A DNA stretch of 36,849 nucleotides, from the IMG/VR virus record IMGVR_UViG_2778261087_000007. The stretch is one strand, 5' to 3'. The position numbers were made by a program, and so were the translations under genes. Origin of the DNA: a virus. Its lineage: Duplodnaviria; Heunggongvirae; Uroviricota; Caudoviricetes. The notes below the pieces were generated by a model. That model made no database searches, was not told the DNA's origin, and saw nothing but the letters and a program-made list of their open reading frames with translations. Shown here piece by piece: positions 1 through 36,849 of the stretch; position 1 is the first letter of the stretch; every line of letters starts with the position of its first letter.

Positions 1-1293
<1,293 letters not shown>

Positions 1294-2474: not shown

Positions 2475-4214
2475 TCAGGCGATAAGGTCGCGGTATTTTT
2501 CCCGCAGGGAGGATGACTGTCTGGCATCACCGGTAAATTCACCACTGTTGGTGGGTGTGCCTGTGCCAGGATGTGCGTGTGTGGCAGCATGTGTTGCCAG
2601 TTGTTCAATGAGATCCAGAATATCAACGAACAACGTCATCAGGTTCAGGCTGTCGCCACCCTGTGAACCATTTCGGCCTATAAACAGGGTCGGCGCAGAG
2701 AGGGAAAGACCACCACTGGCGGTGGTGGTCTGTGTACCGCTGATGTTCTCTGTGATATTCCCGCTTACTGTGCTGTTAACATTACCGCCGATGGTTTCCT
2801 GCCTGTCAGCACTGATGCGGCGTATCTCTGCCTGTAATTCCGCAATAAGGCTGTTTGCTTTCATCCTGATATCACCGGTGGCCACAATACCGTAATCACC
2901 ATCAGAACCATGGACGATCTGCCCTGCCATCAGTGAACTCGTCCCGAGTACCGTGGTACTGTCTGTGGCCTGTACGGTTGTTGTGCGGGTTGTCGTCCGG
3001 CGGCTTTCCTGGTCGCTGGTTATGATTCTGTGTGCAGATTCTTCCCTGATTTTCTGGTCCGTTTCCCGGTGCCATGTGCCGTCACGGGTAACCCTCTGAA
3101 ATACTTCTGCACGCTGTTGCTGTAGCTGCTCGCCAGGCTGGATATCAGGAAGATTCAGTCCGGATGGGAGTATCTGCCTTATTACCGGTTTATCTGGCCG
3201 TCCTTCGATATGCGCGATTTCCACTATCGTTCCGGCTTCCGGATAAGAAAAACAACCGGCCTCATTTCCGGCCATGGGTACCGGAAGCGGCACGGCAGGA
3301 TATACAGGCGTGTTGTTGCTATCGTTGCCGTTTTCGTCCAGTAACTGCAGGTCAACAGCATAACGTGGGCGAAAACTGTCTGCCACATCGCCAAGCGTCG
3401 TGGATTCTGTTGGCGAGATAACGCGGGCCAGTCTTGGGCGTAATGTTCCGTCAGCCAGCTCCGGAAACTGCGATTCTGTCTGACGGCGCAGAGGTGAGCT
3501 GGATACGACAGAACCATCCTGGCGAAACCTGTCCCATGTCAGTGTCATGGTTTCATTATGAATGGCCACACGCGTGATCCGTCCTGCAGGAAGGTTAACG
3601 CCGGGGCGCAGAGTCTCTATCAACATGATATCCATACTGTTGCCGGCGCTGTGCCCCAGTGCATATTCATCAGGAATTTCCGGGATGGTCAGCGATGCAA
3701 AGCGTGAGTCACTGGCGCTGCCAACGAATACAGAACCATCCGGCATGGGATGCCAGACGTAATCCTGAATGCTGAATATCCTGCCAAGATGATCAAGCAG
3801 GCGGGTACCGCTTCCGCTGTGAGTGACGCAGGGTACTGGTGTGGATACATAGGCAGATGACGCGGTAATAAACACGATACCGCTCTTTTTTCCGAGATCA
3901 TCAAGAACATCACGCAGAGTCGGGTGCTGGATGACACACGGAAAACTGAAATCCAGTACCGCGGCAGCTTCCCTGATGAACAGACGGCGGGCGCCGTTTT
4001 CTGCCGGTTGATCGCGCTCAACGTAACCTGAGAAATAACGCCAGGCTTGGCCATCACGCCCAAAATCAATCTGAATCATGGCACCGGCCAGCGTGCTGCG
4101 CTGATTCGGCAGGGTGACAAAACCTCTTCCTGATGCGTTCAGTGACAGGACCAGACTGATGTCTGTTATTTCTGTCTGTTTACCGTTGACCATGCATCTC
4201 TGAATAATTTTCAT
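2475..4214 (-). CDS. baseplate hub / central spike-like protein (possible gpD-gpV type fusion)
   Basis: 579 aa; C-terminus LATHAATHAHPGTGTPTNSG resembles the His-rich apex of P2 gpV (..HTHKHPGDSGGTTG..); last gene of the tail operon; N-terminal similarity to hub proteins is only a pattern-level impression. Confidence 0.5.
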   Translation of the reverse strand: MKIIQRCMVNGKQTEITDISLVLSLNASGRGFVTLPNQRSTLAGAMIQIDFGRDGQAWRYFSGYVERDQPAENGARRLFIREAAAVLDFSFPCVIQHPTLRDVLDDLGKKSGIVFITASSAYVSTPVPCVTHSGSGTRLLDHLGRIFSIQDYVWHPMPDGSVFVGSASDSRFASLTIPEIPDEYALGHSAGNSMDIMLIETLRPGVNLPAGRITRVAIHNETMTLTWDRFRQDGSVVSSSPLRRQTESQFPELADGTLRPRLARVISPTESTTLGDVADSFRPRYAVDLQLLDENGNDSNNTPVYPAVPLPVPMAGNEAGCFSYPEAGTIVEIAHIEGRPDKPVIRQILPSGLNLPDIQPGEQLQQQRAEVFQRVTRDGTWHRETDQKIREESAHRIITSDQESRRTTTRTTTVQATDSTTVLGTSSLMAGQIVHGSDGDYGIVATGDIRMKANSLIAELQAEIRRISADRQETIGGNVNSTVSGNITENISGTQTTTASGGLSLSAPTLFIGRNGSQGGDSLNLMTLFVDILDLIEQLATHAATHAHPGTGTPTNSGEFTGDARQSSSLREKYRDLIA

Positions 4215-6059: not shown

Positions 6060-6660
6060 CACCCTCTGGCCAGCCAACAGGATACGCACGAATATCCGGC
6101 AGTGCGGTCAGCCCTGCCACTTCTTCTTTCATCCGGCGCTGGCGTTCGTGGATTTTAAACCCCTGCATCACCATTGCCGCATTCATCGCAGTATCCAGTT
6201 GTATCAGCTCTTCCGGCGTCAGAGTGACATCCTGATTATCCGCATCCGTCCAGAAAAAATGCTCCGGCAACAGCCCGTTTCCTGCCACCGCAACAACAGG
6301 TGTCAGTCTGGACTGTGACGCCTTTCCGGCATCCCAGCGATGACCACTGAATTCAAAAACAAAACTGCTGTTCTCCTGGCTGTCACGCCAGCGACTGATT
6401 TCACCGTATTTCTGATTTCTGGCCTTTTCCAGTATCTCCTCTGTCACCACAAACGGCGTGACTCCACCCCAGGCCCCTGATATCAGTCCTGACCAGAGCC
6501 TTAACCCGAATTCTGTCGGGTCTGAAGCTCTGGCAGTATAAGGTACATATACCCGATGACTGTCATCAGAACGGTCTGCCATGAACACCTCACAGGTAAT
6601 GCTGCCATCTTCATTAAAACGGGCATTGCGGACGTCCGCTTCTGAATTCCTGGTATCCAT
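6049..6660 (-). CDS. tail fibre assembly chaperone (second copy)
   Basis: 203 aa immediately after tail fibre 2; C-terminal region typical of Tfa chaperones. Confidence 0.7.
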   Translation of the reverse strand: MDTRNSEADVRNARFNEDGSITCEVFMADRSDDSHRVYVPYTARASDPTEFGLRLWSGLISGAWGGVTPFVVTEEILEKARNQKYGEISRWRDSQENSSFVFEFSGHRWDAGKASQSRLTPVVAVAGNGLLPEHFFWTDADNQDVTLTPEELIQLDTAMNAAMVMQGFKIHERQRRMKEEVAGLTALPDIRAYPVGWPEGDDE

Positions 6661-8228
6661 TATTTCACCCTCAGAAAAAGCATTTTCTCTTCAGCTTCTG
6701 CATTTCCGCAGGCCATCCAGATTCCTGACTGTACCGGGTCAAGCCGCTCTCCGGCCAGTTCATCTCCGTAACTGACCGCATCCTGAGAAGCACAGAACAG
6801 GTAACTCCCCACTCCACCGGCTACCGGACGACCGGCGAACTGCCACCATGGAGTGGTACCCAGTCCGCTGTAAGCCCTGATGAATGCCTGTCCCATACAG
6901 TTAAGGAAAATCTGACCTGAAACATTCTCATTCGTCGGCACCTGCCACATCAGACCATATGCATAATTCCCCGCGGCACCCGGAACGGGGTGGTCTTCAC
7001 AGGCAAGGTAGTGGTTATATTTCAGCAACGGGAACTGAAGGTCAGAATACATAAAACCATGAGCCAGAATGCCCGTGAATTTTTTCGCAGTCTTTATCCC
7101 GTCTTCCGGGTAAACTCCGCTGGGCCCCATGGGTCCCTGAGGCCCCTGAGGGCCGGTGGCTCCCCGGGCACCGGTATCACCTTTATCGCCTTTCTCACCT
7201 TTTTCTCCCTGAGGCCCGGTATCGCCCCGGTCCCCTTTCTCTCCCTTTTCACCACGGGGGCCCTGTGGGCCGGTCTCCCCCTGCGGTCCCGGCTCTCCCT
7301 GTGGTCCTGGCGTTTTAGCAATCTCCCTGGCCTCCTCCAGTGCCTTCAGCGCCCCCTGCTCATGTTCACCTGCTGTCGTGGCACTGTCTGTTGCCTGGTT
7401 CGCTGACTGGCGTGTTTGTTCCACGGCCTCCTGATATGAGCATGTGGTTATCCTCAAATCTTCCCATACACCGCTTTCTGTTCTGTGAGCTAACGGTGCA
7501 ATATGACTGTGTTCATCGCATTCCGGAATGCTTTCGGCCAGGATCAGGCGATATCGGGTGACGGGGTACCCCAGGACTGTGAAACCATCCACCCATGCCC
7601 GGATACAAAGATAATCAGCACCTTCAGCAATAATGAGGGTTTCATCTTCAGTCTTTACCCTGAAGCCGGCAATATAGGCGGTGCCACCGGTACAGGTCAT
7701 CACATCATCCTTAACGGTGATGCGTCCACAGTCATTAATAAAAACGTGATGTCCGTAAAAATCGTGCAGTGTTTCGGCTCTTGTACTGGCTTCAGCTTTC
7801 AGCCATGAAGTGATATCCAGTTGCCAGCTCTGAGGGGGAACAGTAATATTCGCAGCCCTGGCCATTCCCTTATAAGCCAGGACAAAATTGCGTATTAATG
7901 TTTCGCCCTCCAGTTTTTGCCTTACCGGGGTGGTGATAATACCGCACAGTGTTCTGCCTGGCTGATGTACAAGACAAATACGGTTATATGTAAACTCCCT
8001 GACATCATGACCAATTGTCACGCTGCAGATAATGGCATCCTGATTGAGACGGCTGTATGTCAGCTCTGTGGCAGCAAATGTTATCTGTGAGTCTTCCGGA
8101 TAACTATCCGTCAGCATTGACTCGTTGTCTGATAAAGTAAAAAGAATGGCATCCGGTCTTGCCGGAATATTATCTGCAACGCAGTCAGCCATCCATTTTT
8201 CAAATGATTTGGTCAGCAGGGTGCTCAT
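6660..8228 (-). CDS. tail fibre protein 2 with collagen-like Gly-X-Y tract
   Basis: 522 aa; N-terminal 200 aa homologous to tail fibre 1 ([12 protein letters not shown]...PARPD vs MSTVITRQYEHW...PARPD); about 21 uninterrupted G-X-Y triplets. Confidence 0.8.
7116..7310 (-). repeat. collagen-like G-X-Y coding repeat inside tail fibre 2
   Basis: Residues about 307-371: [64 protein letters not shown]. Confidence 0.85.
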
Positions 8229-34000: not shown

Positions 34001-34237
34001 ATGACTCAAAAATCAGTACCTGTTTATACGCCCAGTGAACTTGAGTGTTTGAGCGTTAATAATCATGCCTGCCTACGTTTCCATTATGATTTAGGTAACG
34101 ATGCTGAGTTACCTAAAGCTGGAGAGTTGTTTACGGCCTTAACTCTTGAGCAAGCAAAAGATCTTGTTGTTTTTCTTCAGCAATACATCTCAAAGGCTGA
34201 GATTGCAGAATCCTTAAGCTCTAAATCACGTCATTGA
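34001..34237 (+). CDS. small hypothetical protein on the opposite strand of the early operon
   Basis: 78 aa; ATG preceded by GAGGT at 5-nt spacing; 3' end overlaps the convergent minus-strand gene by about 7 nt. Confidence 0.45.
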   Translation: MTQKSVPVYTPSELECLSVNNHACLRFHYDLGNDAELPKAGELFTALTLEQAKDLVVFLQQYISKAEIAESLSSKSRH

Positions 34238-34722
34238 TTCATGAATCCGAGGAACTTCCCTTTTTTGAAGTACCGCCGGTTCATTTTTACTGAGTCAACC
34301 TGAAGGCTTTGGCTTTCTTTTATATCGGGGGTGGCAGTCCCCGATATATTTCGTGATTCAATTAACATTGATTTGTTATTCATAATCTGCCTGTAAAGTT
34401 CCAGGGCTTCTTCGGCAGGAAAACGGAGCATGACACCGCATGCAGGTTCTAAAATCATTCCAATAGTTCCTTTAGCATCATCACGACAAAAATGACCGTA
34501 TTCATCGTCGTGACGCAGGGTGACATCTTTCAAATCTTCGCCATTCTGAAGCTTTGATTTTAATGCCATCAGGCCAGAGAACGTTCTGTGTAATTCGTGG
34601 TAGTCAACGCTGATTTCAACCTGTGGTTTACCCGGAAAAACCAGCAAAAGCTTCTGGTGTGGTTTTTCGTTTTTCAGGGTTTCCAGTCGTTCCAGTAGTG
34701 CTTTGTCTTCGTGGTTTGTCAT
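34231..34722 (-). CDS. hypothetical early-region protein
   Basis: 163 aa from MTNHEDKALLERL (ATG 34722). Confidence 0.5.
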   Translation of the reverse strand: MTNHEDKALLERLETLKNEKPHQKLLLVFPGKPQVEISVDYHELHRTFSGLMALKSKLQNGEDLKDVTLRHDDEYGHFCRDDAKGTIGMILEPACGVMLRFPAEEALELYRQIMNNKSMLIESRNISGTATPDIKESQSLQVDSVKMNRRYFKKGKFLGFMNQ

Positions 34723-34803
34723 TTCAAAGCCCCAGCTACAGTAACCATGCATCTCGCTGTTCTTTCTGGCGTGCAAAGAATGCGTCGACGCTATTGATGT
34801 TGC

Positions 34804-35331
34804 TTATGATAAATCGCTCTCGTGTTCCCTGCGTTTTTCCAGTTTTGAGCTTCTACCCATATAAACCCGTTTTCCGTTAACGGTTTGGCAGTCTTCTTTG
34901 TCTGCTGGAGAGAACTTTCTTTTCTGGCGGTCATACGTCCAGTAGCTTTTCCAGTTGTGCCATTCTGGTGGTTCGCACTCTGGTAGTTCGTCGGCCAACT
35001 TGTCCCACTCTTTGGCGTTAAACCACCATACGCCGTCTGAATCTTCATCTTCCGGGTTTGTACGTGTTTTATGCCCTGGCATTTGTCCACGTGCCACGGC
35101 AGTACGTAGTGCCAGTTTTGTTAACCCGACATATGCAGCACCTTTTTCCAGCGAGCAAAGTCCGGCGATTGGTCCATCTAGTCGAAGTGTTGCTCCTCTT
35201 TTGTAAGTGCGACGAGGTTTACTTTCCTGGTGTTCGCCATCGTTGGCGGCGTTAATGGAGTCGCTTGGTGCGTCACTTTCTTGAAGTGGCGGGAGGTCAG
35301 ATAACTCTTTATCGGCAATGATGTTCCGCAT
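34804..35331 (-). CDS. Cox-like excisionase / switch regulator with N-terminal extension, uncertain
   Basis: 175 aa divergent from the C repressor; segment VGLTKLALRTAVARGQMP...GVWWFNAKEW resembles the P2 Cox HTH region; ATG preceded by AAGAGGA. Confidence 0.45.
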   Translation of the reverse strand: MRNIIADKELSDLPPLQESDAPSDSINAANDGEHQESKPRRTYKRGATLRLDGPIAGLCSLEKGAAYVGLTKLALRTAVARGQMPGHKTRTNPEDEDSDGVWWFNAKEWDKLADELPECEPPEWHNWKSYWTYDRQKRKFSPADKEDCQTVNGKRVYMGRSSKLEKRREHESDLS

Positions 35332-35445
35332 TTGTTATCCTCTTGCGTTGGTGCGCTTATCGCGCCTTGTTATGGTTTGTTTTGGTTTGTTTTGGTTTGT
35401 AAAGATAATCGTACGGTTATCTTTGTGCGAGAGGTTAATACTCAA
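35332..35445. promoter_or_regulatory. immunity switch region (divergent promoters and operators)
   Basis: Three tandem tggtttgttt units (35373-35402) and near-perfect palindrome GATAATCGTACGGTTATC (35404-35421) between the divergent cox-like and C genes. Confidence 0.55.
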
Positions 35446-35787
35446 ATGGTTATCTTGTCAATAGACTATGCGGAAAAGTTGCGTCAAATACGTAAGGCAG
35501 AGGGGCTAACACAAAAGCAGTTTGCTGATATCACAGGACTATCTTTAGCAGCCATAAGGAACTATGAATCAGGGCAAAAAAGCGCCAGAGCAAAAATCGT
35601 TGAGACTGTTTTGCAGGTAGATCGATTCGAAAAGTATATGTTGTGGTTATTAAAGGATAAAACGCTACCTGCCGCCGGGCAAATAGCCCCGGCTCTCTCT
35701 CTTGATGGCTCTTCTCAGTCGGAGGGCGATCAGGCTTCAACCGACGCTATCCAAAAATCACCCCGATCAGGCCGCAATGCTGGCTGA
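35446..35787 (+). CDS. immunity repressor C (P2 C-like)
   Basis: 113 aa; LTQKQFADITGLSLAAIRNYESGQ HTH and FEKYMLWLLKDKTLPAAGQIAPAL closely parallel P2 C (..YYESG.., ..FTKYTLWFMTNQ..GQIAPAL). Confidence 0.8.
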   Translation: MVILSIDYAEKLRQIRKAEGLTQKQFADITGLSLAAIRNYESGQKSARAKIVETVLQVDRFEKYMLWLLKDKTLPAAGQIAPALSLDGSSQSEGDQASTDAIQKSPRSGRNAG

Positions 35788-35856: not shown

Positions 35857-36849
35857 ATGTCGATTAAGCAACTCAAAGACGGACGTTATAAGGTTGATGT
35901 AAGACCACAGGGTGCTGAGGGTAAGCGGATTCGAAAAACCTTCACCCTGAAATCGAAGGCCCAGGAGTTTGAGAGGTATGTTTTACAGAATTTTCATGAC
36001 AAGCCGTGGCAGGCAAAACCAGCTGATCAGCGGCGGTTATCTGAACTGATAGAGGACTGGTGGATGCTTGACGGACGTAATCAGCCTTACGGAGATTCCT
36101 ACAGGGTCAGGCTGGAAAAGGTGATACGTGAAATGGGAGATCCACGCGCCAGCCAGATGACGCGAAAATTTATGCTTGAATATCGGTCAGAGAAATTACA
36201 GGCCGGATTAATGCCGTCCAGCATTAATCGTGACTTGTGCGTTTTGTCAACGATGTTCTCAGTATTGATTGAGACGGAGGTTTTTCACAACGCGAACCCT
36301 GTACGCGGTATACGCAAACTGAAAGTTCAGAACACAGAAATGGCCTTTCTTTCTGATGATGAGATTGATCGGCTTCTTGAGCGACTCGAAGGTGATGCGC
36401 GTCGTGTCGCCATTCTGTGTCTTTCTACGGGAGCTCGGTGGGGTGAGGCGGCGGAATTACGCGGGGAGCATATCGTCGGTAATCGCGTGACGTTCTTCAA
36501 CACCAAGAACGGGAAGTCTCGTTCGGTTCCGGTGTCTGATGCTGTGCTCTCGCTGATTAAAACCCGCCGAACCGGGCCGCTGTACGATGTCGATTATCTC
36601 CGGTTTCGCGAGATCCTCCAGGAGGTGAAGCCTGATTTGCCAAAAGGACAGGCTACTCATGTGATGCGTCATACGTTCGCCACGCATTTCATGATGAACG
36701 GGGGAAACATCGTTACCCTGCAACGGATTCTGGGACATGCCACTATTCAGCAAACGATGACTTATGCGCATTTTTCACCGGACTTTTTACAGGACGCAAT
36801 CAACTTTAATCCGCTGGCTGAAAGTGTCCATAAACTGTCCATCGATTAG
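35857..36849 (+). CDS. int: tyrosine integrase (P2 family)
   Basis: 330 aa from ATG at 35857 preceded by GGAGGGG; arm-binding N-terminus MSIKQLKDGRYKVDVRPQG..GKRIRKTF and C-terminal HVMRHTFATH...LGHATIQQTMTYAH catalytic region; stop is the last codon of the window. Confidence 0.9.
   Translation: MSIKQLKDGRYKVDVRPQGAEGKRIRKTFTLKSKAQEFERYVLQNFHDKPWQAKPADQRRLSELIEDWWMLDGRNQPYGDSYRVRLEKVIREMGDPRASQMTRKFMLEYRSEKLQAGLMPSSINRDLCVLSTMFSVLIETEVFHNANPVRGIRKLKVQNTEMAFLSDDEIDRLLERLEGDARRVAILCLSTGARWGEAAELRGEHIVGNRVTFFNTKNGKSRSVPVSDAVLSLIKTRRTGPLYDVDYLRFREILQEVKPDLPKGQATHVMRHTFATHFMMNGGNIVTLQRILGHATIQQTMTYAHFSPDFLQDAINFNPLAESVHKLSID

Follow-up and report, generated by a model that had tools for sequence, protein, structure and literature searches.

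Which of two regulators reads which of two kinds of repeated element is the question raised by the intergenic interval 35332-35445 of the virus record IMGVR_UViG_2778261087_000007 (IMG/VR, Caudoviricetes), whose whole stretch of 36,849 nucleotides, hereafter the window, was analyzed. This interval comprises the complete 114 bp separating two divergent genes, cox-like and C, and holds both a tandem array of 10-bp units and a palindrome. An earlier note, made from the letters of the DNA, had described it as an immunity switch and had considered the tandem units to be plausible operators of C, on the grounds that P2 C uses direct-repeat operators, and the palindrome to be the site of a second regulator.

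The gene to the left (34804-35331, - strand, from the list of open reading frames) encodes a 175-aa protein that matched Pfam PF10743 (Phage_Cox; 28.4 bits against a cut-off of 27.5, residues 58-129) and PHROG 23196 ('transcriptional regulator', E 1.8e-102), and its homologues are named 'Cox family DNA-binding protein' in RefSeq; a PDB sequence search with it gave no match. It is the first early gene and, as in a P2-type switch, a member of the winged-helix Cox family. Its Shine-Dalgarno sequence, GAGGA (35338-35342, - strand), was read from the sequence and is kept in all relatives as catTTGTTATCCTC. The gene to the right (35446-35787, + strand) encodes the C immunity repressor of 113 aa, which was recognized by Pfam HTH_3 (E 4.6e-10) and by its match to the P2 C structure (2XCJ/2L49, E 1.5e-15, residues 8-93), with an identity of 50% to Wphi C and 34% to P2 C. 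It is followed by the integrase gene int (35857-36849, + strand, from the same list), so that int and C lie on one strand and cox with the early operon diverges from them, the order that is also annotated in P2 and Wphi.

The host gene serS (430 aa) occupies the start of the window (1-1293) and the window ends exactly at the int stop codon. Related prophages are inserted between serS and dmsA, as is PhiECO5 of E. coli UTI89, and the nearest phage records are P88-like Peduoviridae with approximately 84% DNA identity. The locus controls the choice between lysis and lysogeny in a temperate prophage of the P2 type, P88-like and inserted in E. coli between serS and dmsA; the earlier recognition of an immunity switch between divergent cox-like and C genes was borne out by this P2-like context and by the Cox- and C-family matches. 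The switch type is common, with matches in 351 of 5,426 complete E. coli genomes. The slot directly after cox is a variable cargo position with other genes in each relative, and the two open reading frames adjoining cox in the window (34001-34237, + strand, 78 aa; 34231-34776, - strand, 181 aa) had no PHROG match. An Rfam search of the region gave no match either. P2 itself is regarded as not SOS-inducible. Phage P88 was obtained by mitomycin C induction (PMC5285337), and the literature on P88 held host-range work only and nothing on its switch.

Relatives were retrieved from complete E. coli genomes and phage records, together with contigs carrying C homologues of 99-61% identity, the UTI89 prophage, and IMG/VR loci (a sample of 80 loci out of at least 495 hits, with C identities of 100-42%). 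Scanning one genome per species for C homologues yielded a single close relative, and the protein search, the contigs and IMG/VR were more productive. Promoters were scored with a position-weighted sigma-70 score, which was validated by the recovery of the annotated P2 Pe as top hit; a strict sigma-70 scan of 35100-35700 returned zero promoters. With the position-weighted score, a predicted Pe was found on the - strand at a constant offset in every relative (TTGAC(A/G)-18-TA(T/A)CCT), and it outscored all other - strand candidates of each locus. The window version is TTGACA-18-TAACCT, with a spacer of 18 nt, a poor -10 (TAACCT, 35432-35437; TATCCT in most relatives), and a -35 (TTGACA, 35456-35461) placed inside codons 4-6 of C, as the -35 of P2 and Wphi likewise lies at the C start. 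The combination TTGACA-15-TATTAA was considered as Pe and dropped, as TTGACA-18-TAACCT is homologous to the TATCCT of all relatives.

The near-palindrome of 18 bp that had been noticed earlier (GATAATCGTACGGTTATC, 35404-35421) is present and forms the core of a 24-bp one, a zero-gap inverted repeat (AAAGATAATCGT/ACGGTTATCTTT, 35401-35424) in which 22/24 positions are symmetric. Its significance by itself was rejected, because the window contains seven palindromes of the 10-4-10 type with at least 9/10 arm matches against 1.3 expected; being unremarkable alone, it has to derive its significance from comparison with relatives. Two adjacent 24-bp near-palindromes, GACGGGGAATTTGACTTCCCCGTC (1560-1583) and TTACTGTGTAGACTTACACTGTAA (1592-1615), were also seen between serS and the hok/ogr end of the prophage, and could be terminators or att-associated.

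Part of the palindrome recurs nearby: GGTTATCTT has exactly two copies in the 36.8-kb window, at 35415-35423 and 35448-35456, the second of which overlaps the C start codon at 35446. This is the recurrence of GGTTATC at the start codon that had been pointed out before, and it acquires its meaning as part of a second dyad. Two 16-bp dyads of 6-4-6 geometry can be delineated, with the half-site ATA(A/C)(C/T)C that extends outward to AAAGATA. The distal one, AAAGATAATC-GTAC-GGTTATCTTT (35401-35424, core dyad 35405-35420), is the predicted counterpart of the C operator named O2 in P2 and Wphi, and spans approximately +2 to +25 of the Pe transcript; the proximal one, ATACTC-AAAT-GGTTAT (35438-35453), is the predicted counterpart of O1, takes up the Pe spacer and covers the C start codon. 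Their centers lie 33 bp, or three helical turns, apart, both flank the Pe -10, and together they form a direct repeat at that distance. When the window was searched with the operator consensus AGATAMYC-N4-GRKTATCT, allowing up to two mismatches, the only matches were 35403-35422 and 35436-35455, against 0.04 expected.

The proximal dyad is the weaker one, with a self-symmetry of just 4/6 in the window, and the distal dyad is 6/6 symmetric in close relatives. ATACTC, the left half of the proximal site, is nevertheless a legitimate half-site, since two relatives with the same C recognition helix as the window (L032 and L042) use it as a perfect distal half-site, ATACTC GTGC GAGTAT. Among the close E. 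coli relatives the arms of the distal dyad (AAAGATAAC/GTTATCTTT) are invariant around a 4-bp spacer that may be GTAC, AAAA, AAAC or AAAT, and in distant relatives the sequence of the palindrome differs while the 6-4-6 geometry and the position are kept. The register of the proximal dyad is fixed over the C ATG in every class, with the same hexamer as in the distal dyad, in such a way that the 'AT' of the ATG provides the last two bases of the spacer and codons 2-3 of C the right half. As these codons double as half of an operator, the N-terminal residues of C vary with the immunity type: MVIL goes with ATAACC, MVNM with TTCACC, MTNS or MTMS with TAGTT, MSIS with ATCCCC, and MITL with GTTACC (window 35446-35457, L018-L061).

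The elements, their conservation, their co-variation and their positional homology to mapped sites are observations. In approximately 40 distinct switch regions, residues 29-47 of C, i.e., the helix-turn-helix, determine the half-site, with six helix types, six half-sites and zero exceptions. The core ITGLSLA.IRNYESGQK, to which the window belongs, goes with ATA[AC][CT]C, LSLSTVRNYESGQKT with ATCCCC, LA[VI]STVRSYEGVGQT with ATAGTT, LSITTVKSYEGS.QP with GTAGTT, VSYGFLKQYESGHKP with GTTACC, and VSVGTIGNYESGYKP with TTCACC; in the last class the half-sites remain constant through eight spacer variants. C and the dyads are tightly linked, and co-inheritance contributes to this correlation. The Cox allele does not follow the same partition, as the window's own Cox helix variant was found with ATAATC, ATAACC and TTCACC dyads, and the UTI89 prophage has the Cox and tandem units of many E. 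coli relatives yet a different C and a different dyad (CTTCACC ATGT GGTGAAG). These combinations show C alleles, together with their operators, and Cox alleles, together with their units, being swapped as separate modules, one Cox allele being associated with up to three operator classes. In two mosaics (L018 and L044) the distal dyad is of the window type but the proximal region of the ATCCCC type, a combination pointing to recombination breakpoints inside the switch of approximately 110 bp. The palindrome had been assigned to a second regulator, a view that is contradicted by half-sites that strictly track the helix-turn-helix of C independently of the Cox allele.

Perfect 6-4-6 dyads were present in 16/42 distinct switch regions, with C homologues down to 42% identity, against 1.3% in shuffled controls, and they fall at two constant offsets; the same scan found none in P2 itself and in a few others. 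More distant P2-type switches repeat this layout with other sequences. Two Yersinia loci (L009 and L010) have three phased 10-bp units, AGTT(A/G)(G/C)AAC, followed by the dyad TCTATTCC AATT GGAATAGA, and a group of IMG/VR loci (L064-L075) shows the same layout with other sequences, namely phased CTTTAAG/TCCTAGG units followed by GTTCTT TTGT AAGAAC.

The closest characterized C protein is that of Wphi, in whose switch two C sites 34 bp apart flank the Pe -10 (Liu & Haggard-Ljungquist 1999; PMC1904268), and the O1 site of Wphi, TATTGGTGAC, was mapped by mutation (PMC1904263). Together with its left neighbor, this O1 forms a 5/6 dyad, GTAACC TATT GGTGAC, in the same Pe-spacer slot as the proximal dyad of the window. 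Both switches have two C sites, predicted ones in the window, approximately three turns apart around the Pe -10 (34 bp there, 33 bp here), a Pe -35 TTGACA where the C gene begins, and O1 in the Pe spacer. Unlike the window sites, which are 6-4-6 dyads with a nearly perfect distal one, the sites of Wphi were described as direct repeats of 10 bp; its Cox has 91 aa instead of 175 aa and the cox-box sequences differ as well. As the half-site sequences are different, Wphi and the window phage would be heteroimmune. Because the half-site tracks the C helix, the Wphi operator slot matches and the dyads flank the Pe -10, we have fairly high confidence that both dyads are C operators, to which C would bind. 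The earlier note had asked for a comparison with the P2/Wphi Pe-Pc region, and here its reading of the switch context held, while it is the palindrome, and not the tandem units, that occupies the mapped operator position around the Pe -10. Its expectation that C uses direct-repeat operators was partly right: a repeated site is apparently used, and the repeated element is the dyad (two copies, 33 bp apart) instead of the 10-bp unit.

The tandem units lie between the distal dyad and cox. Tandem Repeats Finder returned a period-10 array at 35367-35400 with 3.4 copies of TTGTTTTGGT (95% matches, score 61), in agreement with the three units originally described; on the + strand they read TTGTTATGGT, TTGTTTTGGT, TTGTTTTGGT, and TTGT, with one unit per helical turn. 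Two other tandem repeats of the window (7175-7202, 3.1 copies of the 9-bp TATCACCTT; 7261-7311, 2.8 copies of the 18-bp CCCTGTGGTCCCGGCTCC) have periods that are multiples of three and are located inside a large - strand open reading frame (6660-8228), a tail-fibre region as guessed from position. The phased pattern TTGY-N6-TTGY-N6-TTGY occurs at one place in the window, the switch, against 0.06 expected. The number of full units is two in L029 and three in L030 and in the window, although C is 100% identical in all (at the DNA level L029 is 90% identical to the window over their common 2.9 kb, and L030 80%). In all relatives the cox ATG and the distal dyad are separated by either 64 or 74 bp, and with two or three units the helical phase is preserved. 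The TTGT units accompany at least three different C specificities.

In our proposal the tandem units are, most likely, boxes for Cox that overlie Pc, from which C and int would be transcribed. Their sequence tracks the helix group of Cox, GLTK..ALR being found with TTGT units and GLTR..AL[EA] with TGTCGG units, and in a chimeric Cox (L061) the unit type goes with the helix portion. Relatives whose loci extend beyond int have phased TTGY arrays at just two places, the switch and the stretch immediately 3' of the int stop codon, next to the Int arm sites. The Int arm-type repeats GTCCATAAACTGTCCAT (36826-36842; arm-site consensus tgTGGaCa, PMC3448106) lie inside the last codons of int, and since the window stops at the int stop codon, the int-proximal att arm with the second TTGY array is located just outside. 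It can be read in L016, which is 99.7% identical to the window over 3.4 kb and has the att-arm sequence TTTGTTGAGATTTGTTCACCCTGTTTTGGTTT at its positions 3411-3442, where CTGTTTTGGTTT stands against TTGTTTTGGTTT in the switch. An expected co-variation between the type-specific parts of the att-arm and switch units was weakened by L022, where a group-1 Cox is paired with a Salmonella-type att arm; what remains solid is the TTGY core and the TGTTTTGG match, and because of that pairing only the TTGY core is clearly common to att arm and switch. Our confidence in the units as Cox boxes is moderate, as the co-variation between Cox and units covers just two Cox groups. Intrinsic curvature from phased T-tracts was also considered, and tracts every 5 bp argue against a net bend.

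The alternative that survives best keeps the dyads as C operators and leaves the units protein-free, as a slippage-prone T/G-rich spacer or as a C/A-rich, unstructured cox leader that sets the distance between Pc and Pe. A polymorphic copy number is what slippage would give, and on the Pe transcript the units read CAAACCAAAA, which is predicted to be unstructured. However, the length quantum is exactly 10 bp, phased TTGY is retained in divergent sequences including the Salmonella-type TGTCGG units, the same phased array stands next to the Int arm sites, a place where an mRNA leader would not be expected, and the cox-boxes of P2 hold the same slot. We consider protein-free units unlikely, if still deserving some weight, and retain Cox boxes as the preferred explanation.

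For Pc itself, the best candidate was TTGGTG-17-TGtTATGGT (35348-35376, + strand), which had the top + strand sigma-70 score (9.3) and is tentative. Its -10 is located at +40 from the cox ATG, compared with +38 for the annotated Pc -10 of P2, and it would place both the -10 and the start site within the tandem array. In relatives it is only weakly matched (GATGGT), it is absent from Salmonella-type loci, and no promoter appeared there in the strict scan. Promoter prediction on both strands, as suggested in the earlier note, was consistent for Pe on the - strand and yielded only weak Pc candidates on the + strand. The -35 of the candidate Pc is overlapped by a GC-rich inverted repeat, GGTGCG-N5-CGCGCC, followed by a T-rich run (35350-35366, + strand), which was picked up as terminator-like by a terminator scan and sits between the cox ribosome-binding site and the tandem units. 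Its RNA fold (-9.5 kcal/mol, z -0.25) is not significant alone; a compensatory G-C to A-T change (GGTACG..CGTGCC) was seen in L025, L060 and L065, and a T-G to T-A change in L057.

The distal palindrome could alternatively be mainly an RNA element, a 5' stem-loop stabilizing the early (cox) transcript, and not a protein operator. In the predicted Pe leader it does form a 5'-terminal hairpin (-11.8 kcal/mol, z -3.2), and conserved arms around a variable loop would also fit an RNA stem. A stem of this kind, however, would not be expected to change with the C recognition helix from one class to the next, to have its hexamer repeated in another, only partly symmetric site over the C ATG, or to coincide with the mapped operator positions of Wphi and P2, and we regard this explanation as very improbable. 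The hairpin and operator roles of the distal dyad are compatible, and the hairpin could be a secondary role of what we take to be a C operator.

Least credible of all, and to be given hardly any weight, is the model of the earlier note, in which the units are direct-repeat operators of C and the palindrome serves another regulator, which could be Cox. P2-family C proteins are described as direct-repeat binders (PMC2995052, PMC1904268) and the units are direct repeats inside the switch. However, the half-sites known for C are separated by 22-34 bp and lie on either side of the Pe -10 whereas the units are contiguous and 32-70 bp away from it, the same units occur with different C recognition helices and one Cox allele with three palindromes, and the units, whose conservation within an immunity type was at stake, vary in number among phages with identical C. 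Its broader idea of two site types for two different regulators is probably right, with the two regulators exchanged.

The mechanism that we propose combines these assignments: the two dyads would be C operators at Pe and the tandem units Cox boxes at Pc. As a whole we hold this model to be reasonably probable; the assignment of sites to proteins, the stoichiometry and the exact position of Pc are the parts of it that we infer. One symmetric C dimer would occupy each dyad, and C on both dyads would occlude Pe and keep cox and the lytic genes off. The 175-aa Cox-family protein would sit on the tandem units, one site per DNA turn, over the weak lysogenic Pc -10 and start; Cox made from Pe would polymerize on the units and C and int would be shut off. 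The function of the similar att-arm array, next to the Int arm sites, would be in excision.

This arrangement can be placed among known switches. As expected of the P2 type, the window has the gene order, a C homologue, a Cox gene, two predicted C sites around the Pe -10, and phased putative Cox sites. In P2, cox-boxes of the form TTAAA(G/C)NC(A/C), 10-11 bp apart, overlap Pc and are also present in attP (PMC3936717). The convergent promoters of P2 may be matched here by the predicted Pe and the weak Pc candidates. P2 and the window share the int-C/cox order, an intergenic region of 114 bp, operators (predicted here) that bracket the Pe -10, with O1 between -35 and -10 and O2 just downstream, and Cox sites at 10-11 bp spacing over Pc and in attP, which are predicted here from the phased TTGY arrays. 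In contrast, C is just 34% identical, the P2 cox-box consensus is absent from the window region, and the operators of P2 are direct repeats of 8 bp, non-palindromic and spaced by 22 bp (PMC2995052), and a search of P2 for a 6-4-6 dyad found none. Non-palindromic direct-repeat operators, a property of P2, P2 Hy dis and Wphi, were not found here, where the distal site is a 22/24 palindrome and dyads occur in six classes.

PhiECO5 of UTI89 was assigned to a tentative immunity class IX with a long 'group 2' Cox, a class whose 'function remains to be determined' (Nilsson et al. 2011, PMC3448106). It shares with the window phage the serS-dmsA insertion site, the long Cox family, the TTGT tandem units, and the switch layout, and differs in the C recognition helix (VSVGTIGNYESGYKP) and in the dyad. 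The TTCACC-type C proteins (L046-L058) are approximately 66% identical to the window C, which is below the class threshold of at least 95%. As both C helix and dyad differ, the window phage represents a different immunity specificity within the PhiECO5 subfamily and not class IX. The literature search found no paper mapping operators in this P88-like/PhiECO5 subfamily.

A dual role for Cox has a parallel in Apl of phage 186, which is both excisionase and switch repressor and whose direct-repeat sites, spaced by one turn of the helix, lie between the early promoters as well as at att (PMC7498355). Apl resembles what is proposed for the Cox of the window, i.e., a dual-purpose recombination directionality factor on repeats spaced by one turn. 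Phage 186 differs in having a cI/cII-type switch with a CI of 192 aa, and its Apl is small and belongs to a different Cox/Apl subgroup. A 186-type switch was rejected for the window, where C has 113 aa with a single helix-turn-helix domain and the open reading frames after cox match neither a PHROG nor cII. With respect to C, the P22 c2 and 434 repressors and C.Esp1396I are HTH_3 palindrome binders, and C.Esp1396I places two dimers on adjacent repeated dyads (PMC2995052). A symmetric helix-turn-helix dimer on a dyad with a non-contacted central spacer would be common to them and, as proposed, to the C of the window; unlike the window C, they are not close homologues, and the window dyads are 33 bp apart in what is predicted to be a convergent-promoter switch.

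Taken at the level of the family, these results suggest that operators are usually dyads and that only some members agree with the direct-repeat description. Whether in most of the P2 C family the operator consists of two 16-bp 6-4-6 dyads, each with one symmetric dimer, approximately three turns apart around the Pe -10, is in our judgment an evenly balanced matter. Following the same reading, the 'direct-repeat' operators of P2 and Wphi may be a half-degenerate version of the dyad layout, with GTAACC TATT GGTGAC at Wphi O1 as an example, a proposal for which we would give equal chances of being right or wrong. If true, the dyad layout would resolve the puzzle of a symmetric C dimer reading asymmetric repeats, and the window phage with its near-perfect distal dyad would be a clean test system.

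What is new in this phage is a member of the P2-type switch with an apparently new immunity specificity, whose operators are predicted to be dyads and not P2-like direct repeats; the basic picture of how a P2-type switch functions is unchanged. An uncharacterized intergenic region becomes a testable map with a predicted Pe, two predicted C operators, probable Cox boxes, and a candidate Pc, and hundreds of genomes of E. coli and Salmonella carry a switch of this type. Within one subfamily the analysis distinguishes at least six immunity specificities, and the natural pairs of helix and half-site could be used to work out the recognition code of C.
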